Shown: in pieces, positions 1 to 16,756 of the stretch
Position numbering within the stretch: the stretch's first letter is position 1
How the letters are laid out: every line of letters begins with the position of its first letter
Assembly: GCA_031268535.1 (NCBI GenBank)
Contig: JAIRXB010000010.1
Span: forward strand, 1 to 32,000
Reading direction: 5' to 3'
DNA: 32,000 nucleotides
From: Puniceicoccales bacterium
Lineage (GTDB): Bacteria; Verrucomicrobiota; Verrucomicrobiia; Opitutales; JAIRLM01
Program-made: the position numbers and the translations under genes
The notes under the pieces: generated by a model
What the model saw: the letters and a program-made list of their open reading frames with translations, nothing else
Database searches by the model: none
What the model was told of the DNA's origin: nothing

Positions 1-1991
1 TTAGCTGACAGCTTAGTTAGTTCATAGAAAAACCCTCTCCCGCGAAAAGCCGGCGCGAAAACACCAATGCCACCAACGCCACAGAGGCAATGCCCCAATG
101 CAGCACGAAGCATAGATTCGCCATCGGCTATATGGCTAATAACATCAGTCGCTTCTTTTGCTTTGCGCACCCAGTCGCCAAAGCCATCGGCGGGAAATGT
201 TCCACCAAACAAATCGGCAAATGCGTCAACGGACGTGAGCAACGCTTCTTTCGCCGCCTCCACATGCGGGAGAACCACCTCCACAACAGCTGGTTTTAGC
301 GCCGCACCGGCACCTCCGACATTTGGATCGCCAATGACTTGGCCAGCATTTGCCGCCGCCACATCCGAGGGCACTGAAGATGCTGCTGGCGATGATGCGG
401 ACTGTGCGGACTCCGGCTGATTTGACGTCGACGAAACAGGCGACGCTTTCTGAGCTGGTCGGGCAGACTGTGCCGGCACATGCGCAAGCGGATTTGAACC
501 TGACTTCTGAACTGGCGGTTGCGAAGGCTCCACAGGCAGAGTAGAACTGGACGCATCCCCAGCTCCAGGCGGCGAAACTGGAGGAGGTTGCGAATCGGAT
601 TTCTTGGACGTCTCAGCCCGTGAATCATCTATCACTAGCTGGAGCGCAGACGATTGCGGAGCGGACGGAGGTGCAGCTGGAGGCGGATTTGTCTGCGGCT
701 GAGGCTGGCTGCCATGTGCGGCACTTTGCTGAGCATCCAACGGAGGAGCACCGCCGCCCTGCGGGCTGGCCGGAGGAAGATTTGCTGCGACTGTCGTTGG
801 CATCGGTTGCGCCGAAGAGGCTTGTGCATTCGCGGAGCCGGACGATTGAGCCGGCACGGATTGGGATTGGGACGCTGCTTGCGGAAGATTTGAACCGAGT
901 TGCTGAGAAGGCGTAGCTGCAGGCGGTACGCCGCCGCCTTGGCTGGCCAAAGGAGGATTTGGGCCAGATTGAGAAGCAGGCGCTTGCGGAGGTGTAGCCG
1001 AAGAAGGATTTACGGCACCTGGCGCTAGAGAAGATTGCAGAGCCGGTTGGCCAAGCGGCAGTTGCACAGCTGGAGGCGATTGCGGTTGCGCAGCTGCAGG
1101 CGGCGAAGGCGGAAGCTGCGCTGTTGGCTCTTGGGGAGCACCATCGGCCTGCGGAGGCATGAGCGGACCAAGTTGCTCAACTGGCGGTTGCAAAGGCTCC
1201 ACAGGCGGAGCAGAACTGGATGCATCTTCAGCTTCAGACGGCGTAGCTGGAGGAGATTGCGAATCGGATTTCTTGGACGTCTCGATCTGCGAAATATTTG
1301 GCGCCGACGGTGGCACAGACGATGACGGCGGCGGAGCAAGAGGCGGTTTCGGAGCTTGTTGGACAGGCGGCGGTTGCGGTTGCGCAGCTGAAGGCGGATT
1401 TACCTGCGGCTGAGGCTGGCTGCCATGTGCGGCACTTTGCGGGGCGCCCAACGGATGGCTGGACGGCGGCGGAGCAGACGGCTGCGACGGCGCCTGGCTC
1501 TGAGGCGAAAGCGAAGCAGATGCGGACGGCTGGCCCGGAAGATTTGGCGGCGCTGACTCCTGCTGCTGCGCCACGGCCGAACCGCCATTGTCGCCACCGG
1601 CCGCATCTTCGTCGCCTCCTGCGCCATCTGAATCGGATGGCACGGCGGCGCCGGCGGCAATTTTGCCGCTTTTCCCACGGTCCGCCTTTGCATGCCGAAG
1701 TGCGCTCCACAGCAAATTGAGCTGCGCACCGCCTCTGTTGATTTGAACCGCAACATACGTAAGTAGCGCAATCCAATATATTCCGGCGGTAAAAATCGTT
1801 ACTGCGACAATCAGAATTACGTGCTTTGCCGCAAGACCTTTGGCAACAGCCGCCAGCTGATTGCAGCCTTCCGTACGGCAAGCGGAAACCATATCGTCGG
1901 AGCTGGCGCCGGCAAGCACCCTAACGAATGCACTGCTAATTGCCGTAGCCGCACCAACCTTCGGCAAACCTGCGACACTACCCTTAATCAT
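1..1991 (-). CDS. Membrane-anchored Pro/Gln-rich protein, family member 1 (3' end cut by the window edge)
   Basis: Not in the ORF track because this frame has no stop before position 1. Manual translation from the ATG at 1989-1991 (in-frame TAA upstream at 2004-2006) gives MIKGSVAGLPKVGAATAISSAFVRVLAGASSDDMVSACRTEGCNQLAAVAKGLAAKHVILIVAVTIFTAGIYWIALLTYVAVQINRGGAQLNLLWSALRHAKADRGKSGK. About 480 aa of P/Q/S/A-rich low complexity follow (e.g. SAPPPSSHPLGAPQSAAHGSQPQPQVNPPSAAQPQPPPVQQAPKPPLAPPPSSSVPPS). The sequence then reads ...VDAFADLFGGTFPADGFGDWVRKAKEATDVISHIADGESMLRAALGHC... and runs off the window. All listed minus ORFs in this region are in the other two frames. Confidence 0.75.
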   Translation of the reverse strand, partial: MIKGSVAGLPKVGAATAISSAFVRVLAGASSDDMVSACRTEGCNQLAAVAKGLAAKHVILIVAVTIFTAGIYWIALLTYVAVQINRGGAQLNLLWSALRHAKADRGKSGKIAAGAAVPSDSDGAGGDEDAAGGDNGGSAVAQQQESAPPNLPGQPSASASLSPQSQAPSQPSAPPPSSHPLGAPQSAAHGSQPQPQVNPPSAAQPQPPPVQQAPKPPLAPPPSSSVPPSAPNISQIETSKKSDSQSPPATPSEAEDASSSAPPVEPLQPPVEQLGPLMPPQADGAPQEPTAQLPPSPPAAAQPQSPPAVQLPLGQPALQSSLAPGAVNPSSATPPQAPASQSGPNPPLASQGGGVPPAATPSQQLGSNLPQAASQSQSVPAQSSGSANAQASSAQPMPTTVAANLPPASPQGGGAPPLDAQQSAAHGSQPQPQTNPPPAAPPSAPQSSALQLVIDDSRAETSKKSDSQPPPVSPPGAGDASSSTLPVEPSQPPVQKSGSNPLAHVPAQSARPAQKASPVSSTSNQPESAQSASSPAASSVPSDVAAANAGQVIGDPNVGGAGAALKPAVVEVVLPHVEAAKEALLTSVDAFADLFGGTFPADGFGDWVRKAKEATDVISHIADGESMLRAALGHCLCGVGGIGVFAPAFRGRGFFYELTKLSA
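505..1560. repeat. Internal duplication within the Pro-rich linker of family member 1 (two homologous 0.25-0.35-kb blocks offset by 669-711 bp)
   Basis: actggcggttgc(g/a)aaggctccacaggc(a/g)gag occurs at 511 and 1180. gcgaatcggatttcttggacgtctc occurs at 590 and 1259. ctgcggctgaggctggctgccatgtgcggcactttgc occurs at 693 and 1404. At protein level ETSKKSDSQSPPATPSEAEDASSSAPPVEPLQPPVEQ matches ETSKKSDSQPPPVSPPGAGDASSSTLPVEPSQPPVQK, and QSAAHGSQPQPQ occurs twice. Confidence 0.7.
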
Positions 1992-1999
1992 TTGACATA

Positions 2000-2029
2000 A
2001 TTCTTAGCCGCTGCGCAACGAGTAGTCAA
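2000..2029 (-). promoter_or_regulatory. Candidate sigma70-like promoter for family member 1, at the edge of direct-repeat copy A
   Basis: On the minus strand: TTGACT (2024-2029), a 17-nt spacer, then TAAGAAT (2000-2006), 8 nt before the ATG at 1991. The TTGACT box and 17-nt spacing are conserved in repeat copy B. This is pattern matching only. Confidence 0.25.
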
Positions 2030-2090
2030 ACGGAATCTTCAGTCCGCGAAGACAAACAATCCAAACAAGCACCGAAACGCCACACTAGTT

Positions 2091-2354
2091 TTAAACGGAA
2101 GATGGCACCACAATAGCATTGCCATCGGCAAAATAATTGATGCGAAAATTATCTTTATGCAATATGCCAACGGTCGTTTTAATTGCTTTGATTTTGGCAC
2201 CATTGTCCGCGACATCCTTCAGCATTGCCTCAGCCGCGATGCGCACCGCCGTCCTCGCGCCTCTAAATTCAACACATTCTGCTTCGTCACTTTTCCCCGT
2301 ATTCATTCGGCCGCGTGAAGCAACCATTTCCATGCAAATGGAAACGAAAGGCAT
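2091..2354 (-). CDS. Small conserved hypothetical protein (87 aa), intact copy
   Basis: ORF MPFVSICMEMVASRGRMNTGKSDEAECVEFRGARTAVRIAAEAMLKDVADNGAKIKAIKTTVGILHKDNFRINYFADGNAIVVPSSV. It is co-directional with the flanking genes. The ATG and the stop context are both conserved in repeat copy B. Several inter-copy substitutions are silent (GCG/GCA, GAC/GAT, GGT/GGC). However, the antisense plus ORF 2137-2418 shares the same wobble positions, so the strand call rests on context. Confidence 0.5.
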   Translation of the reverse strand: MPFVSICMEMVASRGRMNTGKSDEAECVEFRGARTAVRIAAEAMLKDVADNGAKIKAIKTTVGILHKDNFRINYFADGNAIVVPSSV

Positions 2355-2372
2355 TTTCTTTTCCGGCTTTTG

Positions 2373-2513
2373 CTATTCTTTTTCCACAACTCCATATCGA
2401 TACTGGCATTTTCTATGAATATGAAACTTGCAATTATCGATCGTTCCATTGACGCCCTCTTTCGCTAACGCCATACACTTTCGGAACGAGGTTGCTGTCC
2501 GGCATCCTAGCAT
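2373..2513 (-). CDS. Candidate small Cys-containing ORF (46 aa) at the start of the repeat module
   Basis: MLGCRTATSFRKCMALAKEGVNGTIDNCKFHIHRKCQYRYGVVEKE. Copy B (14689-14799) encodes MLGCRTATSFRKCMALAKEGADGAIDNCKFHIHGKR. Four of 9 changed codons between copies are silent in this frame, against 1 of 7 in the overlapping frame. No convincing Shine-Dalgarno sequence. The region could instead be a conserved untranslated or regulatory element. Confidence 0.25.
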   Translation of the reverse strand: MLGCRTATSFRKCMALAKEGVNGTIDNCKFHIHRKCQYRYGVVEKE

Positions 2514-2949
2514 TCTCGCAAATAAATCCACAATTCGCACACATATGGGCATCTTCCATGCATCTAGCCACGGCATTCTCGCCGTCAAAACTGTGCGGCA
2601 GCAGACAGGGCCATGCGCGCACTGCGCGCTTAAGCGAGCAGCCTCTAAAGCAACCGGAGAAGCGATCTTTAGCTCGCTTCGGCGCAACGGCAAGTGTATC
2701 ACTGACCAACTCATCTAAGCGCTTACAGTAAGTCTCATCACCGCGATACCTTGTCGGCCCTTTGAGCTCATCTTGAACCCGATCAATTCCTCCAACAATT
2801 TCATATGGCATTCCACCCACATTGCCAAAGCAGTCAACAATGTCTCTTTCTTCAATGAATCTGAACTACAACTCTTTCGCCATGCGCCGATAGATAAAAG
2901 ATTTAATTGACGCTTCATTAACTAATTTGCGCGGCAGGAAATTTTTCAT
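2434..2949 (-). pseudogene. Cys-rich module, paralog copy 3, with an in-frame TAG at 2866-2868
   Basis: One frame reads MKNFLPRKLVNEASIKSFIYRRMAKEL*FRFIEERDIVDCFGNVGGMPYEIVGGIDRVQDELKGPTRYRGDETYCKRLDELVSDTLAVAPKRAKDRFSGCFRGCSLKRAVRAWPC... It is colinear with the C-terminal half of the 3001-3903 protein: FIDEELRKSFNFEIKG...IIERVEQIQEMFKGLPKCGGDVTRCKCLDELLLD...ASGDALVRAVGEIS. Confidence 0.45.
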
Positions 2950-3000
2950 GTGCTTAGCCGCCACATTCATGCATTTAATTGCACAGTCTAAATCACTACC

Positions 3001-3903
3001 CTATTCCAGCACAACCAATTTATATTGGCCATTTCCCTCCCGTACTGGCGCTATCGTATTGATAGTTGCTATGGCAGCCGTTTCTGCCATACGATTGGCG
3101 ATGCCGTCAATCACATTGTTATAGCCCGCGAATGACAGACACCAAGGGAGTGTCGTCGCAACGACATCTGGCGCAGTTGCCGCATTAGCCACAGCTGAGC
3201 TGGGCGGCCTAAACACCATACGGGACAGTTCACAGTAAGCTCCTACGGCGCCCCGACAAAATTGCACGCCTTCATATTGCGCGCTATTGGAAATTTCTCC
3301 AACGGCGCGCACCAACGCATCGCCGCTAGCTTCCCTGAAGGCGTCCGCATAGGATTCCTCCGATACGTTGAAGAATGCATCAAGGAGCAGCTCGTCTAGA
3401 CACTTACAGCGAGTCACATCGCCGCCGCACTTTGGCAATCCTTTAAACATCTCCTGTATCTGTTCGACTCTTTCAATAATTGAACATAGCAGCCAATTCG
3501 CGAAATCGGAACCCTTAGGAGTATTTTCCTCTAGAAAAATGTCGGCAATGCGATTGACTCCCTTTATCTCAAAATTGAAAGATTTACGCAACTCTTCATC
3601 AATGAATCTGGAAACCGGAAAATTCACTCCGCATTCAGTCAGCTTAGTTAGTGACGAAATCGCATCGCCAAGATCCCCACTCTCCTTCAACAAAGCCAAT
3701 CTAGTTCCTGACCACTCACGTTCAGTTTCTGGCCAAATACGTCCACAGCTCGACAACTTCGCTAGCTTCACTGCACCAATGATCGCCGCACTAGCCATTT
3801 TCGAAAGAAGCTCTCCAATGCAGTCAGTCAATGCGCCATACTTCCTGAACAGCTCCAAAGCCACTCCGGACTCGATCGCCTTGGCTTTAGCTGCGCTGAG
3901 CAT
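3001..3903 (-). CDS. Hypothetical Cys-containing protein (300 aa), paralog copy 2 (intact)
   Basis: ATG-initiated 300-aa ORF whose start abuts the stop of the upstream ORF (TAGATG at 3901-3906). It contains the module ...CKCLDELLLDAFFNVSEESYADAFREASGDALVRAVGEISNSAQYEGVQFCRGAVGAYCEL, shared with the 3904-4110 and 2434-2820 ORFs. I recognise no known domain. Confidence 0.7.
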   Translation of the reverse strand: MLSAAKAKAIESGVALELFRKYGALTDCIGELLSKMASAAIIGAVKLAKLSSCGRIWPETEREWSGTRLALLKESGDLGDAISSLTKLTECGVNFPVSRFIDEELRKSFNFEIKGVNRIADIFLEENTPKGSDFANWLLCSIIERVEQIQEMFKGLPKCGGDVTRCKCLDELLLDAFFNVSEESYADAFREASGDALVRAVGEISNSAQYEGVQFCRGAVGAYCELSRMVFRPPSSAVANAATAPDVVATTLPWCLSFAGYNNVIDGIANRMAETAAIATINTIAPVREGNGQYKLVVLE

Positions 3904-4444
3904 CTAAAAGGCTGTAGTCAGCAGTTTGCAGCGAACTCCTGCAGCGCCATCAGGACAGAAGCACCGATCATCCCATCCGCTATTCTTCACAGCGCAGGAG
4001 ATTTCTTCAACTGCGCGCACCAACACATCGCCGCTGGCGCCCACTAGACATCGCTCCATAAGAAACCTGCACAGAACGCAAGGATCTTTCGCACATTCCT
4101 TATCGCCCAATACGCACTGTCCGCCATTACTAATTGATCGCTCAAACAGATCATTTACAGCGCTCTACGTAGCGCAAGTGCAGGATGTCGCGTAGTTTGC
4201 CGTTACGATTTAAGCCGGCATAGCCGGATTCGCTAGCAATCCTCCACAACACATCGCAAATCGCATCGAAGTTTTTGTTATTTGCGGACGTTTCGCAGCC
4301 ACGAGACCAGTCGCACACCGCACTCCAACAACTACTGTTCAAACTCTCGTTAATCGCCACATAATGCGATGTCATCGCTGCAGAGAGCCATAAATAGAGA
4401 GCATTGCTGTTCACTGGCACCGTGCTTACAATGGCGGTGCCCAA
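3904..4444 (-). pseudogene. Cys-rich module, paralog copy 1, apparently split by a frameshift near 4151-4164
   Basis: ORF 4151-4444 (...VAINESLNSSCWSAVCDWSRGCETSANNKNFDAICDVLWRI...) aligns with the N-terminal part of the module (LVNEASIKSF / FIDEELRKSF). A second frame is open from 4164 to 3904 (SAVNDLFERSISNGGQCVLGDKECAKDPCVLCRFLMERCLVGASGDVLVRAVEEISCAVKNSGWDDRCFCPDGAAGVRCKLL) and supplies the C-terminal part. Both listed ORFs start at TTG. They could also be two genuine small genes. Confidence 0.4.
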
Positions 4445-4450
4445 TAGTTT

Positions 4451-7400
4451 CTAAATGCGCTTACTGTTAAGTTCCCTCAAAGAATACCGAAGTGAATAGC
4501 GAAAGTAGTCCCGGACTTTCAATTCTCTTTCGCCTAACGCACATTTGTCAACCGCGTCGGCTACGGCTGACAGCCGTAGTAGGGCGCCTTGCAAATCATT
4601 CACGTCCACTTTGCCCAAACACAACAACTCTAACATAGAGCTAATCTCGCAAAAAATATTTTCAATACATTCGATGCCACTCGATCTGCACATGGCGACT
4701 AGCTCATTACAGACCGCAGCAGCACCACTCTCGGACGCGCTTGAATCAACAACCGCCAAAGCAACGATACGGTCAATCGCTGTTCGCCTTACACCGGCAA
4801 TTTTGCCAAACCCCAGTCCGAAATCGTAGTAGCGGCAGTCATGCGCAGCCAACTCACCGCGGAGATGCCAAATGTCGGTAATAAACCTACACACTTCACC
4901 AATGCGGCCCATAGACAAATTCTCTGCAGCCATGCACCCTTTAAGTAGCGCGCAAATTTCACCCAAAAAACCCATGCAGCGCGGCGATGCGCCGGAATAA
5001 TAATATCCGCCACTGCGTAGCGCACGGGCGCACGCAGCAAGAGCCGCATCCCTCATGCTTGCGTCAGCCATATCGTCGTCCAACATAGACTTTACGGTGA
5101 CAATTGCTCTGATGCCATCCGCCGTGTGCGGCAGCAAATCGAAATCAAAAAGAGACCCAAACTTGCCGCTAAGCGCTTCGCACAGCGCTTTGACATTCTC
5201 TTCGGAGCGTGGTCCGCAATTGGCTAATTTATTCCTGATTTGATCTACGCAACCATAGCACACATTCCCTTCGCCGTCAACAATGGCGGCCGATATGGCT
5301 TCGCAGATCTCGCCAATTTCAGTCGCATCAGCGACGGCAGACTTATCGCCAAGAAATTTGCCGATCGCGTCGATGGCATCATCGACTTTTTTTCGGTTGC
5401 TGGCAACTTCAATGTCAAATTCTAGACATCGCACCACATCCGCCACAGCAGCGTCACCGGCAGAACCACCGGCCGAAGATTTAAGAACATCGCACAGCAC
5501 ATCCATGGCGGCATTTATGGAGGCGGCGCTAGTGTCTTTTGCCACTTCGCTCGGCATCTCCACTTCCGCAAGCGCACTTACTCTCAAATCAAGGGAACTC
5601 TCCGGCGATAGCCGTAGCCAACGGCACAGGTGATCCGCCAAGAATTCGTCGATTTTCCCGTTCACACACACTGCCGCTAAGAGCTTGTCGCGCACATTTT
5701 GGTCTCCGAGACCTACACCGTTTGTGATTCCTTCCGCAATCAAGCGCTTCGCCGCATTCAACTTATCGTAATTGGCAGCGTATCTAATGGCGCCAATCAT
5801 CAAAAGGTAGCTTTTTTCGCCATGGGTCACACTGGGGAAACGTAAAAGCTCCATCAACTTGTTATATTCTCTACTCACAGTTGGGGCTTTGCTTGCCATT
5901 TCCCCAAGCAAATTGTCAACGACGCTGGATAAAAGTCTGAGATTTCCACTGTCCACCTTTTCGCCATCCACAAGTACGAACTTCAAAATTTCTTCCTTGG
6001 CGGCAGTAACATCAACTGCTTCGCCGTAGGCGGCTTTGCGAAGCAAAGCCACTATGGAGTGCAGCTCGCAAATCGAAATAAGCGGCTCGACAATTACACT
6101 TTTAAAAGTGCTACCAGTTCCTCCCTTCCATGGGGGGAACTTGAGCGCCGCAAGCAATTCATCGGGGTTTTCGTTTTGGAGTGCGGCGTCATGGATTTTT
6201 CCGCAGCCATATCCTTTGAAGCCGCAAAAACTTGATAGTAAAATTTCTTCGCAGGTTTGGTTGACCTTCCCATCGACAAAAACGGCAGATTCGTATGCCG
6301 CAAAAACCTTTTTGAAGTCAGCCTCTTTGCCCTCGAGCGCGGCAAACAAACTGCTTCTAGCGGTCGACATCTCGCTAAATTTCGCCGCCGCTAGCGCTGC
6401 GCGGGACAGTGCGACATTCGCATTATGATGATGTTTGGTGCTGTCACCAAATGAAATGGCCAGCTTCGCTAAATCGTCGGCGTCAGCGGCCGCGGGTTCG
6501 CCAAACGGCAAAAGCAAATGGGGGAGTTTGCCAAAAACAAGATGCGCGAAATAACCCTCACGGACATTAAGGCGACTCAGGCAGCTACTGTAGTCCACTC
6601 CACCGCGAAATTTGTCGAGGGAAGACTTCCACCCGTCGGTCACATCAGAAACTAATCCTCCTACGGCAGCAATGACTTCTACACGGGTAGTGGTAGGCGG
6701 TTTTTTACCGCTCACCGCTGCAATGACTCCAAGATATGCTCCATAGGCTATAGCAAGCTCTTTATTTCTTGCGTAATCACCATCAGATTTTTCGACCGCG
6801 GCAGCGGGAGGACTATAGCCAAGGAGCTCCATAAGACCAGCTGTGTGACATCTGATTTCCTGCGCACCATCAGAAGTCCTGTCGGTGAAATGCGCAAAAA
6901 TATCCTTAAGTCCGGCTGCGGCACTGCCGTCGCCATAGCCATCGCGGCACAAGTTTTCGATGCAACTCATAATGCAACGCACATGTTTCCTATGCCAAGA
7001 TTCTAAGTTGCAATCAGCTCCTCCGGACGCATTCCGCAAATCATTCCCCAACTCCCCACGCAGCGAACCAATCAATTGGTCGGCCAAATTGATAACTTTT
7101 CTAGTTTTTTCGAGGTCACTGTCGCACTTTTCAAGTGCGCCCACCGCTTTTGCCCGCAATCTTTCACTAATGGCAAGACCAGGTTTTGACGGCACGATAG
7201 GGGTTTTGCCCGCTTTAGCGGGGTCCAGAAGCGCATTTTGAAATAATTCAAAGGCTGACTCGTCAACATTCCACTTTTCTCCGCTACGTACGGTTAACCG
7301 TAAGCGCATGGCGTCGACGAAGCCCTCAAGCAATCGATCCGATTCATCTTCACTTTCCCGTTCCCTCAGAAGAGATGCCCACACGGCGACGGCGCAGTTG

Positions 7401-10400
7401 GTGCGCACAGAGTCGTCTTGATCGGAGCCGCAATATGCCACCACAAGCGCTGCGGATTTATCGAGCGCAGTTTCGCACAGTTTCGCGTCCTTGCTTGTCG
7501 CGGCAAAATCAAACAATTCACCAACAAGATCGATCGGAAACGGAACTGACTCATTTCTCCACTTGCCATCTTCAGAAACAAATAGGCAGAGCCCGCCACT
7601 TATGGCGACTCCGGCATGTGACAGCTCCGCAAGCTCAGTTACTGCTTTGTCGCCGACAGCTTTGATGAACATGTCATCTACGTGATGCAGTGCGCAAATC
7701 GAAATGAGCGGCTCGGCAATTGCCCGTTTAAAAATGCTACCGGTTTCCGCACTCCATTGGGTCGACCCGAACGCCTCAAGCAATGCATCGGGGGTTTTGT
7801 TTTGGAGTGCGGCTGCACGCAATTCATGGTTATTACCTCTGAAGCCGCAAAAATCTGATAGAAAAAATTCTTCGCAGATTTGGTTGACCTTCCCATCGAC
7901 AAAAACGGCAGTTTTGTATGCCTCGAGAACCTTTTTGTAGTCCTTTTCTTTGCCTTCGATCGCGGCAAACAAATGTTTCTTGGCGGCCTGCATCTCGCTA
8001 AATCTCACCACACCTATCGCGCCCATGGATAACTCGACATTCGCATTATGGGGATGGTCGGTGCTGTCACCAAATGAAATTGCCAACTTCGCTAAATCGT
8101 CGGCGTCAGCGGCCGCAGGTTTGCCAAACGGCAAAAGTAAATTGGGGAGTTTGCTAAAAACAAAACTCGAAAAACGCCGTTGGATCGTTTCACTGCCCCG
8201 TTCGACGGGCGCAGAGCTCCGCCACCCATCGGCAGCATTAAAAACTAATTCTCCTACTGCAGCAATGACTTCTCCACGGGTGGTGACAGGCGGTTTTTTA
8301 CCGCTCACCGCCGCAATGACTTCAAGATATGCTCCATAGGCTGCAGTAAGCTCTTCACTGCTTGCGTAATCACCGTCAAATTTTTCGACCGCGGCGTCGC
8401 GAGGGCAATAGCCAAGAAGCTCCATGAGATCAGCTGTGTGACGTCTGATTTCCGTCGCACCATCATAAGTCCTGCCGGCGAAATGCGCAAAAATATCCTC
8501 AAGTCCGGCTGCGGCATTGCCGTCGCCGCAGCCATCGCGGCACCAGTTTTCGACGCAACTCAAAAGGCAACTGACGTGCTCATTGTGCCAAATGTAGTCC
8601 GCATCTTTTTCGGCGACATCCAGCAAATCATTCAGCCCGTGGGCCAAACCGAAAACTTGCCCAGTTTTTTTGAAGTCACTGTCGCACTTTTTAAGTGCGT
8701 CCACCGCTTTTGCCCGCAATCTTTCACTAATGACAAGACCAGGTTTTGACGGCGCGATAGGGCTTTTGCCCGCTTCGGCGGGCTCCGGAAACGCATTTCG
8801 AAATAATTCAAAGGTGGACTCGTCAACATTCCACCCTTCTCCGCTACGTACGGTCAACCGTAAGCGCATGGCGTCGACGAAGCCCTCCAGCAATCGATCC
8901 GATTCATCTTCACTTCCTCCCCGTTCCCTCAGAAGAGATGCCCACACAACGCCGGCGCAGCTGGCGCGCACAGCAGAGTCGTCTTGATCGGAGCCGCAAT
9001 ATGCCACCACAAGCGCTGCGGATTTATCGAGCGCAGTTTCGCGCAGTTTCGCGTCCTTGCTTGTCGCGGCAAAATCAAACAATTCATCCACAAGATGAAT
9101 CGGAAACGGAACTGACTTATTTCTCCACTTGCCATCTTCAGAAACAAATAGGCAGAGCCCGTCATCTATGGCCATTCCGGGACGTGACAACTCCGCAAGC
9201 TCAGTCATTGCTTTGCCGCCGGCAGCTTTGATGAACAGGTCCTCTATGGGCCGCAACTCGCAAATCGAAATAAGCGGCTCGACAATTACACTTTTAAAAG
9301 TGCTACCAGTTCCTCCCTTCCATGGGGGAAACTTGAGCGCCTCAAGCAATGCATCGAGGTTTTCGTTTTCGAGCGCGGCGCAATGGATTTTTCCGTGGCC
9401 ATGTTTTCCGAAGCCGCAATGCAATGATAGAAGAATTTCTTCGCAAGTTTGATTGACATTCCCATCGACAAAAACGGCAGATTTGTATACCTCAAAAACA
9501 CTTTCGTAGTCATTTTCTTTACCTTCGAGTGCGGCAAACAAACTGCTTCTAGCGGCCTTCATCTCGCTAAATCTCACTACACTTATCGCATCCATGGACA
9601 GCTCGACATTCGCATTATTGGGATGCTCGGTGCTGTCACCAAATGAAATGGCCAGCTTCACTAGCTCGTCAGCGCCAACGCGGCCACCAAGCGGCAAAAG
9701 TAAATTTGGGAGTCCGCTAAAAACAAAACTCAAAAAATACCGTCGGATCGTTTCACGGCCACGTCCGACGGACGCAAAGCGCCGCCACCCATCGACAGCA
9801 TTAAAAACTAATTCTCCTACGGCAGCAATGGCATCTCCGCGGGTACCTGGCGGTTCTCTATGGCGCACATTTGCAATGGCGTCGCGCACTTCAAGATATG
9901 CTCCATAGGCCATAGCAAACTCTTTGCTTCTTGCGTAATCACCGTCAAATTCTTCGACCGCGGCAGTGGGAGGGCTATAGCCAAGGAGCTCCACAAGATC
10001 AACTATGCCACATATGGCTTCCTGCCCCAAAGTAAACATGCCGCTGATGCTCCACTCCAGAATATCCGCAAGTTCGGCTGCGGCACTGCCGTCGCCACAG
10101 CCATCGCGGTACCAGTTTTCGACGCAACTCATAATGCAACGCACATGTTTCCTATGCCAAAATCTTAAGTTGTAATCAGCTTCTCCGAACGCATCCCGCA
10201 AATTATTCTCCAACTCCCCACGCAGCGAACCAATCAATTGGTCGGCCGAATTGATAACTTTTCTAGTTTTTCCGAGGTCACTGTCGCACTTTTTAAGTGC
10301 GTCCACCACTTTTGCCTGCAATCTTTCACTAATGACAAGACCAGGTTTTGACGGCGCGATAGGGTTTTTGCCCGCTTCGGCGGGCTCCAGAAACGCATTT

Positions 10401-13400
10401 CGAAATAATTCAAAGGTGGACTCGTCAACATTCCACTCTTCTCCGCTACGTACGGTTAACCGTAAGCGCATGGCGTCGACGAAGCCCTCCAGCAATCGAT
10501 CCGATTCATCTTCACTTCCCCGTTCCCTCAGAAGAGATGCCCACACGGCGACGGCGCAGTTGGTGCGCACAGCGGGGGCTCGACCGGAGCCGCAATATGC
10601 CACCACAAGCGCTGCGGATTTATCGAGCGCAGTTTCGCGCAGTTTCGCGTCCTTGCTTATCGCGGCAAAATCAAACAATTCACCCACAAGATCGATCGGA
10701 AACGGAACTGACTTATTTCTCCACTTGCCATCTTCAGAAACAAATAGGCTGAGCCCGCCACTTGTGGCAGCTCCGGCATATGACAGCTTCGCAAGCTCAG
10801 TCACTGCTTCGTCGCCGGCAGCTTTGATGAACAGGTCCTCTATGGGACGCAGCTCGCAAATCGAAATGAGCTGCTCGACAATTACACTTTTAAAAGTGCT
10901 ACCGGTTTTCCCATTCCATTGGGGCAACTTGAGCGCATCAAGCAATGCATTGGGGGTTTTGTTTTGGCGCACGACTGCACGCAATACTTCATAGTCATTA
11001 TGGCCGAAGCCGCAAAAATCTGACAGTAAAATTTCTTCGCAGGTTTGGTTGACATTCCCATCGACAAAAACGGCAGATTCGTATGCCGCAAAAACCTTTT
11101 TGAGGTCATCTTCTTTACCTTCGAGTGCGGCAACCAAACTGCTTCTAGCGGTCGACATCTCGCTAAATTTCACCGCCGCTAGCGCTGCGCGGGACAGCTC
11201 GGCATTCGCATTATGGTGATGCTTGGTTTTGTCACCAAATGAAATGGCCAGTTTCGCTAAATCCTCGGTGTCAGCGGCCGCTGGTTCGCCAAACGGCAAA
11301 AGTAAATGGGGGAGTTTGTCAAAAACAAAATACGCGAAGTATTTCATACGTCCACCGTGGCCCGATTCTTTATTGCAACGCCACCCGTCGACCACGCCAA
11401 AAACTAATTCTCCCACGGCAGCAATGACTTCTCCACGGGTAACAGGCGGCGGTCCTTTGACGCTCTCCGCCGCAATGGCGTCGCGCACTTCAAGGTATGC
11501 TCTATAGGATGGCACAAGCCAGCTATCCGCATCAGCTTTTTCTACCGCGGCAGCTGGAGGGCTATAGCCAAGGAACTCCATGAGATCAGCTGTGCGACGT
11601 CTGATTTCCTGCGCACAATCATAAGTCCTGCCGGTGAAATACGCAAAAATATCCTCAAGTTTGGCTGCGGCATTGCCGTCGCCGCAGCCATCGCGGCACC
11701 AGTTTTCGACGCAACTCAAAAGGCAACTGACGTGATGCTGCTCATTGTACCAAATGCAGTTCGCATCTTTTTTGGCGGCATCCAGCAAATCATTCAGCCT
11801 GTGGGCCAAACCGAAAACTTGCCTAGTTTTTTCGAAGCCACGGTCGCACTTTTCAAATACGGCCACCGCTTTTGCCAGCAATCCTTCACTAATGGCAAGA
11901 CCAGATTTTAACGGCGCGATAGGGCTTTCGCCCGCTTTAGCGGGCTCCAGAAACGCTGCTCGAAATAATTCAAGGGTTGACTCGTCAACAATCCACCTTT
12001 CGCCGCTATATGCGGTTAACCGTAAGCGCATGGCGTCGACGAAGCCCTCCAGCAATCGATCCGATTCATCTGCACTTCCCAGTTCCCTCGAAAGAGATAC
12101 CCACACTGCGCCGATGCAGTCGGCGCGCACAGAGTCGTCTTGATCGGAGCCGCAATATGCCGCCACAAGCGCTGCGGATTTATCGAGCACAGTTCCGCGC
12201 AGTTTCGCGTTATTGCTTTTCGCGGCAAAATCAAACAATTCATCCATAAGATGAATCGGAAACGGAACTGACTTATTTCTCCGCTTGCCATCTCCAGAAA
12301 CAAATAGACTGAGCCCGCCACCTATGGCCGTTCCGATATCTGACAGCTTCGCAAGCTCAGCACTTGATTGGTCGCCACTGCGAATAACCTTTTCTAGTTC
12401 CCGCAGCTCTTTCGAGAGATAGCTCCAAAAAGCCTTATTTTCTGCAACAACAGTCGGATCGCCAAATACCTCTTTGGCAATCTGAAATGCACCGTCACCG
12501 GCCAAATGGCCGACGACGCTAAACGGGGAAAGGGATACATCGCCATCGGCCAGTTTTCCGGCTAGAATTTTCGCCAAGGCGAAAATCTCATCCATGAGAG
12601 AAATTTCCACAGCGCATCCAGATTCGTCAGTTGAGCCACTAAACCTAACGGGCAAAGGATCTGGAACCGCCGAGACGCAACCAATCATATCGTTTAGGAG
12701 CGCAGCCCTGAACGGACTAATGGCATCTCCGCTGCCATCTTTGCCGCGCAGAGAAATTAGCGCTTTCGCGGCGGATGCCCTAAATACATCAATTTCATCA
12801 CCGGCTTCCACTGCAAGTGTTAGCAGCCGACTCATCACGCCTTTATTTTGGACAATGTAATCCACAACATCCTTGCGGTCAGCAAGGTCACGCAGAAACG
12901 GCGGCGCATCGTACCAGACACCCATATCAAACTTAAACAAATCCGAAAATATGGAACATCCAAACAGCGCCTGCGCTGCTCTATTACTGTAACTCGAATC
13001 AAGCTCGGCGGCCATCGAAACCAAGGCGCCTCTCAGCTCATCTTCGCCACCTTTGCTGAGTCTGCTTACTTTTATACTTAAACCTGCAGACTCAAACAAA
13101 CTATGCTGCAACAAATCACCTTCATCTGTAGGAGAAGATTTCTGGGCTGGTTTTGGTGGCGCATCGCCTTTCAGATGTGTGGACGGCCTACCGCGGGGTG
13201 CTCTCGCATGTGGCGGCGGCTTTGGTTGCGAAACGGCCGGAGGCTGCGCGGGTTTTGCTGCTGGCGGAGGAGGCGGTGGCGGAGAAGATGGTGCTGATGG
13301 GGCTGGCGGCGGTTGCGCAGCTGCAGACGGATTTGAACCAGGCTGCGGAGATGTAACTGCAGGCGGCGCAGCTGGAGGAGGCGTAGATGGAGGCACCGAA

Positions 13401-14197
13401 GATGCAGGCGGAGCAGGCGGCGGTGGCGAAGAAGGTTGCGGCGGTGGCGAAGCTGGCGGAGGTGTAGCCGAAGGAGGCTGCGCGGGTTTTGCTGCTGGCG
13501 GAGGAGGCGGTGGCTGAGAAGGAGGCGATGGCGGAGCAGATGGTGCTGATTGGGCTGGCGGCGGTTGCGCAGCTGGAGGAGGCGTAGATGGAGGCACCGA
13601 ACCGGACGGAGAATTGGGCTGCGACGACGACGGCGATTTGCCGGACGTCGATTGCGGACCATGCAGCCCGCCAGAAGCCGAACCGCCCGGCGACGGAGAG
13701 CCAGAAGCGCCAGCGGCGTGTCCAGCGGTGGCGCCACTTCTCCCGCGGTCCTTCGGCCGTACGCGGGTGGCGGGTTTTCCAGGTTCTTCGGACGCATCGG
13801 AAGCGCCGCTGGCAATTTCCTCCCGCTGCGCTGGCGTGGCGGCGAAAAATTCACTCAGGTAGCCAATGAGCGTTTCGCGATTCTTGATTCTGCGGAAAAC
13901 GTAACAGGCATATGCAACCCAAACAATTCCAACGCTAATAATCGTCAGAGCAATCCACAGCAAAGTCCGCGCCGCACCCGAACGGCAGTAAACGGCATTC
14001 AGCACTTGGTCTAAATTATAATCGACGCCTTCGGCCCGATAGGCCAATGCATGTTCAGTGACATCGTCGCTACCCTTTAATCCTTTCAGCCGTTTCCCAT
14101 ACCTGAAAATAACGGCGGAAGCTTCGAGGAAACCAAGCTTAAGCTCATCATTGCCGCGCATTTCTTCTTTTAAAGGGCAATTGCCAAGCAAAGTCAA
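4451..14197 (-). CDS. Giant membrane-anchored Pro-rich repeat protein, family member 2 (3,248 codons from TTG at 14197; first ATG at 14161)
   Basis: A single uninterrupted 9.7-kb ORF. The hydrophobic segment is RTLLWIALTIISVGIVWVAYACYVF (about nt 13895-13966), followed by RRIKNR. The Pro-rich linker spans about aa 165-355 and includes PPPPPPAAKPAQPP twice. Four repeats of about 520 aa span aa 614-2729. A unique helical Cys-containing C-terminal region of about 520 aa follows. I recognise no enzymatic motif. Confidence 0.9.
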   Translation of the reverse strand: MTLLGNCPLKEEMRGNDELKLGFLEASAVIFRYGKRLKGLKGSDDVTEHALAYRAEGVDYNLDQVLNAVYCRSGAARTLLWIALTIISVGIVWVAYACYVFRRIKNRETLIGYLSEFFAATPAQREEIASGASDASEEPGKPATRVRPKDRGRSGATAGHAAGASGSPSPGGSASGGLHGPQSTSGKSPSSSQPNSPSGSVPPSTPPPAAQPPPAQSAPSAPPSPPSQPPPPPPAAKPAQPPSATPPPASPPPQPSSPPPPAPPASSVPPSTPPPAAPPAVTSPQPGSNPSAAAQPPPAPSAPSSPPPPPPPAAKPAQPPAVSQPKPPPHARAPRGRPSTHLKGDAPPKPAQKSSPTDEGDLLQHSLFESAGLSIKVSRLSKGGEDELRGALVSMAAELDSSYSNRAAQALFGCSIFSDLFKFDMGVWYDAPPFLRDLADRKDVVDYIVQNKGVMSRLLTLAVEAGDEIDVFRASAAKALISLRGKDGSGDAISPFRAALLNDMIGCVSAVPDPLPVRFSGSTDESGCAVEISLMDEIFALAKILAGKLADGDVSLSPFSVVGHLAGDGAFQIAKEVFGDPTVVAENKAFWSYLSKELRELEKVIRSGDQSSAELAKLSDIGTAIGGGLSLFVSGDGKRRNKSVPFPIHLMDELFDFAAKSNNAKLRGTVLDKSAALVAAYCGSDQDDSVRADCIGAVWVSLSRELGSADESDRLLEGFVDAMRLRLTAYSGERWIVDESTLELFRAAFLEPAKAGESPIAPLKSGLAISEGLLAKAVAVFEKCDRGFEKTRQVFGLAHRLNDLLDAAKKDANCIWYNEQHHVSCLLSCVENWCRDGCGDGNAAAKLEDIFAYFTGRTYDCAQEIRRRTADLMEFLGYSPPAAAVEKADADSWLVPSYRAYLEVRDAIAAESVKGPPPVTRGEVIAAVGELVFGVVDGWRCNKESGHGGRMKYFAYFVFDKLPHLLLPFGEPAAADTEDLAKLAISFGDKTKHHHNANAELSRAALAAVKFSEMSTARSSLVAALEGKEDDLKKVFAAYESAVFVDGNVNQTCEEILLSDFCGFGHNDYEVLRAVVRQNKTPNALLDALKLPQWNGKTGSTFKSVIVEQLISICELRPIEDLFIKAAGDEAVTELAKLSYAGAATSGGLSLFVSEDGKWRNKSVPFPIDLVGELFDFAAISKDAKLRETALDKSAALVVAYCGSGRAPAVRTNCAVAVWASLLRERGSEDESDRLLEGFVDAMRLRLTVRSGEEWNVDESTFELFRNAFLEPAEAGKNPIAPSKPGLVISERLQAKVVDALKKCDSDLGKTRKVINSADQLIGSLRGELENNLRDAFGEADYNLRFWHRKHVRCIMSCVENWYRDGCGDGSAAAELADILEWSISGMFTLGQEAICGIVDLVELLGYSPPTAAVEEFDGDYARSKEFAMAYGAYLEVRDAIANVRHREPPGTRGDAIAAVGELVFNAVDGWRRFASVGRGRETIRRYFLSFVFSGLPNLLLPLGGRVGADELVKLAISFGDSTEHPNNANVELSMDAISVVRFSEMKAARSSLFAALEGKENDYESVFEVYKSAVFVDGNVNQTCEEILLSLHCGFGKHGHGKIHCAALENENLDALLEALKFPPWKGGTGSTFKSVIVEPLISICELRPIEDLFIKAAGGKAMTELAELSRPGMAIDDGLCLFVSEDGKWRNKSVPFPIHLVDELFDFAATSKDAKLRETALDKSAALVVAYCGSDQDDSAVRASCAGVVWASLLRERGGSEDESDRLLEGFVDAMRLRLTVRSGEGWNVDESTFELFRNAFPEPAEAGKSPIAPSKPGLVISERLRAKAVDALKKCDSDFKKTGQVFGLAHGLNDLLDVAEKDADYIWHNEHVSCLLSCVENWCRDGCGDGNAAAGLEDIFAHFAGRTYDGATEIRRHTADLMELLGYCPRDAAVEKFDGDYASSEELTAAYGAYLEVIAAVSGKKPPVTTRGEVIAAVGELVFNAADGWRSSAPVERGSETIQRRFSSFVFSKLPNLLLPFGKPAAADADDLAKLAISFGDSTDHPHNANVELSMGAIGVVRFSEMQAAKKHLFAAIEGKEKDYKKVLEAYKTAVFVDGKVNQICEEFFLSDFCGFRGNNHELRAAALQNKTPDALLEAFGSTQWSAETGSIFKRAIAEPLISICALHHVDDMFIKAVGDKAVTELAELSHAGVAISGGLCLFVSEDGKWRNESVPFPIDLVGELFDFAATSKDAKLCETALDKSAALVVAYCGSDQDDSVRTNCAVAVWASLLRERESEDESDRLLEGFVDAMRLRLTVRSGEKWNVDESAFELFQNALLDPAKAGKTPIVPSKPGLAISERLRAKAVGALEKCDSDLEKTRKVINLADQLIGSLRGELGNDLRNASGGADCNLESWHRKHVRCIMSCIENLCRDGYGDGSAAAGLKDIFAHFTDRTSDGAQEIRCHTAGLMELLGYSPPAAAVEKSDGDYARNKELAIAYGAYLGVIAAVSGKKPPTTTRVEVIAAVGGLVSDVTDGWKSSLDKFRGGVDYSSCLSRLNVREGYFAHLVFGKLPHLLLPFGEPAAADADDLAKLAISFGDSTKHHHNANVALSRAALAAAKFSEMSTARSSLFAALEGKEADFKKVFAAYESAVFVDGKVNQTCEEILLSSFCGFKGYGCGKIHDAALQNENPDELLAALKFPPWKGGTGSTFKSVIVEPLISICELHSIVALLRKAAYGEAVDVTAAKEEILKFVLVDGEKVDSGNLRLLSSVVDNLLGEMASKAPTVSREYNKLMELLRFPSVTHGEKSYLLMIGAIRYAANYDKLNAAKRLIAEGITNGVGLGDQNVRDKLLAAVCVNGKIDEFLADHLCRWLRLSPESSLDLRVSALAEVEMPSEVAKDTSAASINAAMDVLCDVLKSSAGGSAGDAAVADVVRCLEFDIEVASNRKKVDDAIDAIGKFLGDKSAVADATEIGEICEAISAAIVDGEGNVCYGCVDQIRNKLANCGPRSEENVKALCEALSGKFGSLFDFDLLPHTADGIRAIVTVKSMLDDDMADASMRDAALAACARALRSGGYYYSGASPRCMGFLGEICALLKGCMAAENLSMGRIGEVCRFITDIWHLRGELAAHDCRYYDFGLGFGKIAGVRRTAIDRIVALAVVDSSASESGAAAVCNELVAMCRSSGIECIENIFCEISSMLELLCLGKVDVNDLQGALLRLSAVADAVDKCALGERELKVRDYFRYSLRYSLRELNSKRI
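6010..12358. repeat. Four tandem intragenic repeats of about 1.56-1.63 kb (units start at about 12358, 10798, 9202 and 7636 on the minus strand)
   Basis: Each unit begins ELA(K/E)LS....GGL(S/C)LFVS(G/E)DGK(R/W)RN(K/E)SVPFPI.L..ELFDFAA and ends ...STFKSVIVE.LISICEL. The marker tgaca(g/a)ct(t/c)cgcaagctc recurs with spacings of 1560, 1596 and 1566 bp. Antisense pseudo-ORFs recur with the same period (7072-7269, 8632-8829, 10234-10431). Confidence 0.9.
13238..13600. repeat. Duplication inside the poly-proline linker of the giant gene (offset about 234 bp)
   Basis: ggaggctgcgcgggttttgctgctggcggaggaggcggtggc occurs at 13239 and 13473. At protein level SVPPSTPPPAA...PPPPPPAAKPAQPP occurs twice, with offsets of 67-78 aa. 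Confidence 0.7.
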
Positions 14198-14288: not shown

Positions 14289-14317
14289 GCCATAGCCGCT
14301 GCGCAATGAGTAGTCAA
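14289..14317 (-). promoter_or_regulatory. Candidate promoter for the giant gene at the edge of direct-repeat copy B
   Basis: On the minus strand: TTGACT (14312-14317), a 17-nt spacer, then TATGGC (14289-14294). It is positionally equivalent to the copy A candidate. The -10 element is weak. Pattern matching only. Confidence 0.2.
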
Positions 14318-14378
14318 ACGAAATCTTCGGTCCGCAAAGACAAGCAAGGCGAACAAGTGTCGAAGCGCCACACTAATT

Positions 14379-14640
14379 TTAAACGGAAGATGGCGCCCCA
14401 ATCGCATTGCCATCGGCGAAATAGTTGGTAGGGAATCATCTTTGCGCAATGTGTCGATGGTCGTTTCAATTGCTTTGATTTTGGCGCCATTATCTGCGAC
14501 ATCCTTCAGCATCGCCCCAGCCACGATGCGCACCGCCGTCCTCGCGCCTCTAAGCCCAGCACATTCTGCTTCGTCACTTTTCCCGCATTCATTTGGCCAC
14601 GTGAAGCAATCATTTCCGTGCAAACGGAAATGAAAGGCAT
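14379..14640 (-). pseudogene. Frameshifted copy of the 87-aa small ORF
   Basis: The ATG at 14638-14640 gives MPFISVCTEMIASRGQMNAGK. A 1-nt loss follows (GGGGAAAAG in copy A, GGGAAAAG here), and a second 1-nt loss lies near the C-terminus. The middle part (SDEAECAGLRGARTAVRIVAGAMLKDVADNGAKIKAIETT) is conserved only in a shifted frame. Confidence 0.55.
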
Positions 14641-14688
14641 TTTCTTTTTCGGCTTTTACTAGTCATTTTTCACAATCCAATACCGACA

Positions 14689-14799
14689 TTAGCGTTTTCC
14701 ATGAATATGGAATTTGCAATTATCGATTGCTCCATCGGCGCCCTCTTTCGCTAGCGCCATACATTTTCGGAACGAGGTTGCTGTCCGGCATCCTAGCAT
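14689..14799 (-). CDS. Copy B of the candidate small Cys-containing ORF (36 aa)
   Basis: MLGCRTATSFRKCMALAKEGADGAIDNCKFHIHGKR. See the 2373-2513 entry for the substitution argument and caveats. Confidence 0.2.
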   Translation of the reverse strand: MLGCRTATSFRKCMALAKEGADGAIDNCKFHIHGKR

Positions 14800-14856
14800 C
14801 CTCGCAAATAAATCTCCAACCCCTTCGCATGGGGTCAGTCTTGCGTTGAAAGTAAA

Positions 14857-14936
14857 TGGTCGGGATGACTGGATTTGAACCAGCGACTTCTACGTCCCGA
14901 ACGTAGCGCTCTAGCCAGGCTGAGCTACATCCCGAC
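14857..14936 (-). tRNA. tRNA-Pro (anticodon CGG), with encoded CCA
   Basis: The reverse complement is GTCGGGATGTAGCTCAGCCTGGCTAGAGCGCTACGTTCGGGACGTAGAAGTCGCTGGTTCAAATCCAGTCATCCCGACCA. It has a 7-bp acceptor stem (GTCGGGA/TCCCGAC), an anticodon stem CTACG/CGTAG with loop TTCGGGA, and a T-arm GCTGGTTCAAATCCAGT. Confidence 0.92.
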
Positions 14937-15053
14937 TCCGCCACTGATGGACGATCGTTGGCGTCGGGCAAGGGAAAAATTCGCCAACAAAATGTTCCCG
15001 CCGGCGTAACGGACAGGTTGCATTGCGCTGCCGCACACCATAGGAATTCGCAA

Positions 15054-16374: not shown

Positions 16375-16752
16375 CTAGGAACAACCGTCCTGAAGCGAAC
16401 TCACTATGGCGCGGAAGGCCGCCAAGTGGCGCAGCGGCTGCAGATGTTGATCTTTTTCCATGCGCTGGGAGTCGTCATAGCCTAGCCCGACGGCGATCTT
16501 TAGGTGTTCAATGGCGAACTGAGCTTGGTTGGAAGCGGCAAATGCACAGCCGAGTACGTAGTGCAAATCTGGACTGTTCGGGTGCAAAACCGCAGCGCGC
16601 ACACTCACCTGTAGAGCTTCTCCAATCTGGCCGCAGTCCAAACACAGCTCGCCGAGCTTTAGCAGCGTTGGTAAATCATTGCCACATTTGGCGGCGAGCT
16701 TTTCGAAAAATGCAAGCTGAAAGGCCTTATCTTCGGCAAAACGTTTTTTCAT
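16375..16752 (-). CDS. Small TPR-like protein (125 aa)
   Basis: MKKRFAEDKAFQLAFFEKLAAKCGNDLPTLLKLGELCLDCGQIGEALQVSVRAAVLHPNSPDLHYVLGCAFAASNQAQFAIEHLKIAVGLGYDD... shows TPR-like helical-pair periodicity. The ATG at 16750-16752 lies 4 nt after the argS stop. The longer track ORF (to 17058) would overlap argS by 300 nt. Confidence 0.6.
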   Translation of the reverse strand: MKKRFAEDKAFQLAFFEKLAAKCGNDLPTLLKLGELCLDCGQIGEALQVSVRAAVLHPNSPDLHYVLGCAFAASNQAQFAIEHLKIAVGLGYDDSQRMEKDQHLQPLRHLAAFRAIVSSLQDGCS

Positions 16753-16756
16753 CGTC

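Follow-up and report, generated by a model that had tools for sequence, protein, structure and literature searches.

A giant orphan gene with four tandem 520-residue units in an uncultured Puniceicoccales genome, and its possible role as an anchored helical scaffold

Introduction

The chlamydial Inc proteins, which are secreted by the type III route, carry a bilobed hydrophobic domain of ~40-60 amino acids (aa), and TARP is a proline-rich repeat effector. Giant surface adhesins of the RTX and BIg/cadherin kinds, SiiE and LapA among them, are made of ~90-110-aa beta-sandwich repeats and have calcium-binding motifs and, at the C-terminus, a signal for type I secretion. In this work we analyzed a giant gene whose product resembles each of these groups in some traits and departs from them in others. 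The gene is located on the minus strand of a 32,000-nucleotide (nt) stretch of DNA (positions 1 to 32,000 of contig JAIRXB010000010.1, assembly GCA_031268535.1; hereafter the window) that belongs to a metagenome-assembled genome (MAG) of an uncultured Puniceicoccales bacterium, and it is built around four tandem units of ~520 aa.

An earlier note on this DNA had described a single open reading frame (ORF) of 3,248 codons with four long repeats. An N-terminal membrane anchor followed by a linker, the neighboring gene A, a 524-nt direct repeat, a ratio of nonsynonymous to synonymous substitution rates (dN/dS) of about 1, a decayed 3' tail and genes resembling type III secretion system (T3SS) genes were absent from that description and are reported here.

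Results

Four Long Units Form the Body of the Giant Protein

The ORF occupies positions 4451..14197 of the minus strand as a single frame of 3,248 codons, with a stop codon only at its end and none inside. The four head-to-tail units of ~520 aa proved to be real and unusually long. By tiled BLASTP, the repeated block comprises aa ~597-2728, and it was divided into units U1 to U4 (Table 1), which are followed by ~14 aa of the start of a fifth copy, down to nt ~6015. At the DNA level, repeat families with four copies each were found at start-to-start spacings of 1560-1626 nt, every one a multiple of 3. Identity between units was 61-72% in protein and 78-85% in DNA. Stretches of 85-90% identity, which the earlier note had reported together with sequence motifs that are indeed present in the units, hold for blocks (40-codon blocks reach up to 97-98% nt identity) but not for the units overall. 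The longest exact match between units was 74 nt, which is below the length of usual short reads and of final assembly k-mers. Since a short-read assembler can separate copies that share no longer stretch, collapse or expansion of the array during assembly seems unlikely.

The Reading Frame Has Been Kept Open

No stop codon was observed in the array. When equally many substitutions were distributed randomly following the observed mutation spectrum (2000 runs), a mean of 18 stops was obtained, and no run gave fewer than 7. All indels between units were in frame over 6.3 kb. As a control we used a non-coding 524-nt repeat of the window, which has a similar divergence (86% identity) and contains two 1-nt indels. 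Across all six unit pairs dN/dS ranged from 0.84 to 1.16, and the 627 differences of the units from their consensus were distributed over codon positions 1, 2 and 3 as 219, 230 and 178, without an excess at third positions. The proportion of invariant alignment columns depended on the class of the consensus residue, being 80% for Cys, 61% for hydrophobic, 43% for polar and 30% for basic residues. Judged from its sequence, the giant gene appears to be a real protein-coding gene whose reading frame is kept open by selection. The lack of stops, the in-frame indels, the conservation by residue class and a dN/dS close to 1 would together indicate a translated, folded protein with a constrained core and a surface that is free to change or diversifying.

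An Orphan Family With Two Known Members

The protein called in public annotations, P0001 (2,887 aa), is identical to NCBI MDR1435924.1 (LBI39_01815, 'MAG: Puniceicoccales bacterium'). A single paralogue, P0002 (2,580 aa; NCBI MDR1435817.1, LBI39_01245), is encoded on another contig of the same MAG. Neither the giant protein nor P0002 had a match in Pfam, NCBIfam, PADLOC or PDB sequences, which agrees with the earlier view that no recognized repeat, adhesin or catalytic family is present, and no profile assigned the unit to a known repeat family. At E <= 1, Pfam returned three chance-level matches only, including an ARM-like one at E = 0.11. A profile built from the four units and searched against all 1.84 billion representative proteins matched only P0001 and P0002, the latter over one unit (aa 187-711) with E 3e-108. 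Word-indexed searches of 5.8 billion proteins retrieved only the query itself with the full-length protein, and only the two paralogues with P0002. Two DNA-level scans of metagenome contigs of the Joint Genome Institute (JGI), with unit and anchor patterns, returned nothing, the source contig included; exact look-ups of four proteins found no record, and no homologue was present in the syntenic region downstream of the arginyl-tRNA synthetase (ArgRS) gene in the nearest related MAG. So far, this orphan family has two known members, both from one uncultured genome of the Puniceicoccales (Verrucomicrobiota).

P0002 is without internal repeat, and its single unit is ~38-43% identical to each of U1-U4. 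Because the four units are far closer to one another than to this unit, their amplification appears to postdate the split of the paralogues. Similarity among the four units is a mosaic. Over alignment columns 1-200, U2, U3 and U4 share 87-98% nt identity and U1 is the outlier. In columns 201-240, identity is 91% for U2-U4 and 73% for U1-U3, against 67% for U2-U3, and a 9-aa insertion is common to U2 and U4. U1 and U3 are 94% identical in columns 241-280, and U1 and U4 90-93% in columns 401-480. DNA repeats also occur at two-unit spacings of 3162 and 3192 nt. Since the mosaic pattern and the two-unit spacings fit such a course, the array was probably amplified from one to two to four units, with subsequent gene conversion between copies. 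A short ancestral flank repeat as the seed of unequal crossing-over was not significant in P0002 (17 of 1000 shuffles reached its score), and nothing of the kind was found in the giant gene.

The N-Terminal Anchor and Linker Are Missing From Public Annotations

The 3,248 codons delimited mechanically begin at the first in-frame start, TTG 14197, located 12 codons before ATG 14161. The true start of the gene is almost certainly ATG 14161, which gives a protein of 3,236 aa, because an alignment with the protein P0005 pairs MRGN... of the giant protein with MRDG... of P0005. AAAGAAGAAA precedes ATG 14161. P0005 (223 aa, LBI39_01250) adjoins the P0002 gene and runs into a Pro-rich tract of its own; on that contig the anchor has been called as a separate 223-aa gene (LBI39_01250) beside the body (LBI39_01245). 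Both public starts of the giant gene (JGI and NCBI MDR1435924.1) lie at TTG 13114, corresponding to aa 362 of the ORF, so that 349 residues comprising the membrane anchor and the polyproline linker are left out.

The anchor module contains one transmembrane (TM) helix (aa 78-100, nt 13898-13966; hydropathy peak 2.23). Over 91% of its length it matches P0005 with 68% identity, and its comparison with the N-terminus of gene A gave a Smith-Waterman score of 77 (shuffles, 27.5 +/- 4.6; 0/500 reached 77). Between paralogues, conservation of this module (68%) exceeds that of the body (about 40%), which makes it the best-conserved part of the family. The charges flanking the helix show a slight positive surplus after it (RRIKNR) and leave the topology undecided. 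In the linker that follows, Pro accounts for 28.6% of the residues over the measured span (aa 121-400), with runs PPPPPP, PPPP and PPPPPPP, and the DNA holds short internal repeats (D7/D12). Since the anchor module is homologous to P0005 and to the N-terminus of gene A, and gene A has the same layout, anchor and linker appear to be coding. Among the Pro codons of the proline-rich tract CCG is the commonest (29/80), and a nearby tRNA-Pro has the anticodon CGG.

Predicted Structure and Cys Positions

In line with the earlier distinction of the unit from Ig/cadherin/RTX-type short repeats, its predicted structure was all-alpha. AlphaFold2 run on a five-unit alignment gave about 21 helices per unit, with a predicted local distance difference test score (pLDDT) of 53, and 25 helices for the C-terminal region (pLDDT 56). 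The Foldseek comparison of one unit that the earlier note had proposed yielded no significant match in PDB, and neither did that of the C-terminal region (best E 0.14 and 3e-3, respectively; template-modeling score <= 0.24). Both lists were dominated by HEAT/ARM solenoids, that is importins, catenins and designed helical repeats. With hhalign, the unit profile had no off-diagonal match against itself or against the flanks (best probability 0.6%), and the comparison revealed neither a short sub-repeat within the unit nor kinship of the unit with the flanks. According to these models, the body is all-alpha and possibly solenoid-like.

The proposal in the earlier note that conserved Cys clusters could form a metal or disulfide site was not borne out. 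Only two of the four Cys in SC(L/I)(L/M)SCVENWCRDGCGDG are invariant across the four units: within SCxxSCVENWCRDGCGDG, one Cys is replaced by Y in U2 and another by Y in U4. The four units have eight invariant Cys columns in common. P0002 shares only four Cys columns of the whole unit, and its cluster region retains only one conserved column. These alignments do not support a conserved metal or disulfide site in the unit. Cys makes up 2.4% of the body and 3.9% of the C-terminal region, a content that would suit a reducing compartment better than an oxidizing periplasm.

A Broken 3' Tail and Its Recurrence in the Locus

The ~520-aa C-terminal region, which had been regarded as unique, is in fact related to P0002 (Table 1), and this homology extends 2.3 kb beyond the stop codon of the giant gene. 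The alignment passes TAG 4451 in the same frame to 4154, resumes in other frames at 4086-3340, 3330-2467 and 2279-2112, and reaches residue 1796 of P0002; the last ~780 residues of the paralogue (aa 1797-2580) have no counterpart. Because the alignment runs straight through TAG 4451 and then into broken frames, the present stop seems to be secondary, and the ancestral C-terminal part would be decaying or split into small ORFs. Examined as a possible pseudogene, the locus has a main 9.7-kb ORF without stops and, relative to P0002, an early end followed by 2.3 kb of broken homologous sequence. The tail holds a ~250-aa tandem duplication of its own (4086-3340 vs 3330-2467, both aligning to P0002 aa ~1354-1660). 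As this is a second and independent tandem duplication, duplication of internal segments may be recurrent in the P0001/P0002 family.

Four of the stops that break the tail are TAG, which prompted us to consider stop-codon reassignment or read-through. We rejected this, since 10 of the 15 ORFs checked, including MreB and the giant gene, terminate in TAG, and the frame also shifts.

A piece of the tail is found twice in the window as a 524-nt element. The two copies are 86% identical, differ by two 1-nt indels and lie at spacings of 12286, 12287 and 12288; its origin is the tail (aa ~1600-1796) of a gene like P0002, and each copy sits directly upstream of an anchor-plus-linker gene. Because of this recurrence, the locus looks like a recombining stretch of related modular genes. 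A further P0002-like tail relic at 14432-14941 (-), 30% identical to aa 1600-1785 and frameshifted, abuts a weak TsaB-like ORF at 14958-15626 (+); it suggests that an earlier gene copy upstream of the giant gene has been largely deleted.

In the product of gene A, the downstream neighbor, a short N-terminus and a TM helix are followed by ~480 aa of P/S/Q/A-rich linker and then by the beginning of a structured body, of which ~60 aa are visible in the window and had no detected similarity to the body of the giant protein. The P/S/Q/A-rich region of gene A has its own ~150-nt repeat (507-659 vs 1176-1328, 79% identity). On the other side of the giant gene, the tRNA-Pro gene may delimit a variable or island-like stretch. 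No tRNA-derived direct repeat that could serve as an island border was found in the window, Rfam identified only tRNA in it, and defence-system or phage-like features had no PADLOC match. The G+C content at third codon positions (GC3) is 0.50-0.52 in the locus and 0.56-0.64 in housekeeping genes.

Neighboring Genes and T3SS-Like Genes

Ordinary bacterial genes surround the locus, coding for ArgRS, MreB, components of an ABC transporter, an arginine kinase of the McsB type and NrdG, the activase of the anaerobic ribonucleotide reductase. Among 185,579 species genomes, the closest ArgRS (55% identity) was that of the Puniceicoccales MAG Roe453_bin74. The source of the Roe453 bins is the gut of a lower termite, Roisinitermes ebogoensis (PMC11707648), and termite-gut Opitutales lineages have been described as putative endosymbionts of gut flagellates (PMC11257099).

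About 17 kb from the giant gene, a gene for a tetratricopeptide repeat (TPR) chaperone like CdsG/SctY and one for an inner-rod protein like SctI/YscI are adjacent, in yscG-to-yscI order. The CdsG match, to a chlamydial needle-chaperone family, covers profile positions 12-117 of 133. Both matches are full-length. None of the core genes sctV, sctN and sctJ is within the window, and the remainder of any such system would be situated past its right end. A T3SS in this genome is likely from these matches, not proven.

Beside the T3SS-like genes, a 361-aa orphan ORF (30092-31177, +) without family match has the lowest GC of the window (0.465); it might encode a further secreted protein specific to the lineage. 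A TPR protein with a TPR end-of-group domain (16375-17058, -), encoded between the ArgRS gene and the tail relic, weakly resembles type III chaperones of the LcrH/SycD class (E 4.8e-5, far below cut-off); since its listed ORF overlaps the ArgRS 3' end by 300 nt, the protein probably begins some 100 codons later. A 1,141-aa ORF (20177-23602, +), located directly upstream of an ABC permease gene and with a GC3 of 0.50, below that of housekeeping genes, had no Pfam, NCBIfam or PADLOC match. The McsB-type protein arginine kinase gene (26598-27662, +; NCBIfam E 6e-74, below the equivalog cut-off) is flanked by a zinc-peptidase-like gene and an ABC ATPase gene.

Table 1. Coordinates of the features of the locus in the window; residue numbers are those of the 3,248-codon ORF unless P0002 is named.
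Feature	Position	Strand	Description
Giant gene	4451..14161	-	3,236 codons, ATG 14161 to TAG 4453-4451
N-terminal anchor module	13823..14161	-	ORF aa 13-125, ~110 aa; missing from both public annotations
Pro/Ser/Ala-rich low-complexity linker	13115..13822	-	aa 126-361, ~240 aa, GC 66%
Pre-repeat region	12404..13114	-	aa 362-598, homologous to P0002 aa 17-186; TTG 13114 at its 5' end
Repeat unit U1	10844..12403	-	aa 599-1118, 520 aa; over most of its length the most diverged copy
Repeat unit U2	9248..10843	-	aa 1119-1650, 532 aa
Repeat unit U3	7682..9247	-	aa 1651-2172, 522 aa
Repeat unit U4	6056..7681	-	aa 2173-2714, 542 aa
C-terminal all-alpha region	4454..6055	-	aa 2715-3248, 42% identical to P0002 aa ~713-1260
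Broken 3' tail	2091..4450	-	ORF fragments homologous to P0002 aa ~1250-1796
Tail interruptions	TAG 4451; TGA 4151; TAG 3904; TAG 3001; TAG 2866; TAA 2434; before 2279		TGA 4151 with frameshift; TAG 3904 with ATG at once after; second frame change before 2279
524-nt element, copy by giant gene	14293..14814	-	directly upstream of the giant gene
524-nt element, copy by gene A	2005..2528	-	directly upstream of gene A
Gene A	1..1991	-	downstream neighbor, runs off the window; 663 codons open to the edge
tRNA-Pro (CGG)	14857..14934	-	43 nt upstream of the 524-nt element
CdsG/SctY-like TPR chaperone gene	31623-31991	-	NCBIfam CdsG E 2e-9, SctY E 1.5e-6
SctI/YscI-like inner-rod gene	31209-31607	-	Pfam PF17001 E 2.9e-5, profile positions 2-94 of 94

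Discussion

The giant protein consists of a conserved ~110-aa N-terminal module with a single TM helix, a ~240-aa polyproline linker that is probably extended, and a ~2,850-aa body predicted to be all-helical, in which one 520-aa module, single in the paralogue, is present in four tandem copies. We propose that it may act as a helical scaffold that is tethered to the membrane, can be extended in length and offers variable binding surfaces on its repeated modules. The scaffold would most likely face a eukaryotic host cell, such as a gut protist, because of the orphan status of the family, the fast evolution of the surface, the polyproline tract and the relatives in protist-rich guts. Its delivery or exposure could perhaps be aided by a T3SS, of which the giant protein is possibly a substrate, and the polyproline tract might serve as a spacer or as a docking site for host proline-binding domains. 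We also counted in favor of host interaction the T3SS-like gene pair, the NrdG activase, the termite-gut relative, the flagellate-endosymbiont lineages and the Cys content. Taken as a whole, a real and selected gene of an orphan family that encodes an anchored, extensible helical scaffold for host interaction is the best explanation that we can offer, and we hold it tentatively; the evolutionary pattern and the architecture are striking, while the function in host interaction is one that we infer from context and that is not proven.

Several observations weigh against this proposal. Confidence in the structure models is low (pLDDT 53 and 56), and none of the fold matches reached significance. 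The only hydrophobic segment has 24 aa, unlike the bilobed domain of chlamydial Inc proteins, and the charges around it give no clear membrane topology. All matches to type III secretion families score below curated cut-offs, and PDB sequence searches with the two T3SS-like genes provided no support. The termite-gut origin belongs to the related MAG and is not established for the present one, and since both family members come from one genome, conservation across species cannot be stated. Finally, a dN/dS close to 1 together with a decayed tail is also consistent with a gene heading for loss.

That last point leads to the possibility that the giant gene is a recently amplified, useless paralogue that drifts neutrally and whose long ORF has not yet been hit. 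The absence of third-position excess, a GC3 below that of housekeeping genes and the relics of a further copy upstream would fit such a course, as would the state of the 3' end, where five stop codons and two frame changes disrupt the counterpart of P0002 aa ~1250-1796 and that of aa 1797-2580 is lacking from the locus. Under neutrality, however, ~18 stops would be expected in the array, where simulations never gave fewer than 7 and none is observed; 6.3 kb with in-frame indels only stands against two frameshifting ones in the short non-coding repeat; conservation favors hydrophobic and Cys positions; and the anchor has stayed 68% identical between paralogues whose bodies are at about 40%. We consider decay unlikely for these reasons. 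An assembly origin of the four copies, by collapse, expansion or chimeric joining of reads from the repeat or from several strains, is highly improbable: the contig stems from a short-read metagenome bin and contains long repeats, and a chimeric assembly could in principle produce mosaic similarity between units, yet the units differ by 15-22% in DNA, share no exact stretch above 74 nt, keep the frame unbroken across all junctions and show a two-unit periodicity that is internally coherent. Both decay and artefact are less likely than either a host-facing or a cell-internal scaffold. For the nature of the unit itself, a domain that binds metal or is stabilized by disulfides through its Cys cluster is very unlikely. 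The motif SCxxSCVENWCRDGCGDG and the eight invariant Cys columns would speak for it, but two of the four motif Cys are replaced by Y (in U2 and in U4), the paralogue shares four Cys columns of the unit and conserves one in the cluster region, and no metal-binding family was matched.

The main competitor of a host-facing scaffold is a bacterial scaffold or tether that is anchored in the cytoplasmic membrane, with a Pro spacer like that of TonB/TolA and its body in the cytoplasm or the periplasm, serving for example the organization of the envelope or of cell shape. The TonB/TolA layout likewise places a Pro-rich spacer after one TM helix at the N-terminus, no secretion signal is recognizable, the neighbors ArgRS, MreB and ABC transporter are housekeeping genes, and the slightly greater number of positive charges after the helix (RRIKNR), together with the high Cys content, would place the body in the cytoplasm. 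Against this, neither TonB, TolA nor any other envelope domain was found with Pfam or NCBIfam; a housekeeping scaffold should be conserved, but no relative appeared among the 1.84 billion proteins or in the syntenic region of the nearest genome; and a dN/dS close to 1 is unusual for structural housekeeping proteins. We regard such a cell-internal role as a serious alternative that is nonetheless rather unlikely.

If the host-interaction proposal were true, the giant gene would give first access to the means by which uncultured gut Verrucomicrobiota, which are related to protist endosymbionts, engage eukaryotic cells. In it one would also have a clear case of protein growth by recent amplification of a very large (520-aa) module, in which selection acts on the integrity of the reading frame, not on the sequence. 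Going further, one could imagine a so far unrecognized class of proteins directed at the host in Verrucomicrobiota associated with protists or termites, in which a conserved N-terminal anchor or secretion module and a polyproline stalk are combined with interchangeable giant helical bodies that grow by amplification of ~0.5-kaa (thousand-aa) modules, diversify under host pressure and are delivered by a chlamydia-like T3SS; in this full form the idea is improbable. If the gene is decaying instead, it is an ordinary lineage-specific orphan. A practical lesson concerns annotation: both public versions cut off the membrane anchor and the proline-rich linker, and low-complexity GC-rich segments can steer gene callers to a wrong internal start and so hide a localization signal.

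Comparison With Known Systems

Like Inc proteins and TARP, the giant protein has an N-terminal region and a hydrophobic segment followed by a large, mostly helical domain; it is lineage-specific and fast-evolving, without detectable homologues, shows variation in repeat number and, as in TARP, contains proline-rich tracts, and a chaperone match of the chlamydial T3SS type (CdsG) is present in the window. It differs from Inc proteins in its single ~24-aa hydrophobic helix (aa 78-100), which is without a second lobe. Its body is about ten times larger than those of Inc proteins and TARP and its repeat unit has 520 aa instead of ~50 aa; there is no sequence similarity with either, and its secretion is conjectural.

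With TonB and TolA the protein shares a single-pass anchor at the N-terminus and, after it, a long spacer that is proline-rich or extended. In the giant protein, however, Pfam and NCBIfam detected no TonB_C or TolA domain, the distal ~2,850 aa are orphan helical sequence, and the protein is confined to one genome. HEAT/ARM solenoids, which include importins, beta-catenin and bacterial solenoid effectors, resemble the predicted body in their all-alpha helix-turn-helix construction and headed both Foldseek lists, but the best match (E 3e-3, template-modeling score <= 0.24) was not significant and no ARM/HEAT profile matched. Moreover, a sub-repeat of ~40-50 aa is not detectable in the giant protein, whose unit is a composite module of 520 aa.

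The protein resembles the giant surface adhesins in exceeding 3,000 aa, in its internal tandem repeats and in having a low-complexity linker. It had no Pfam match to their domains, RTX and HemolysinCabind included, and, unlike them, it is predicted to be all-alpha, with 520-aa units and a membrane anchor at the N-terminus. Its C-terminal region also sets it apart from RTX adhesins, being helical and homologous to an internal part of P0002.

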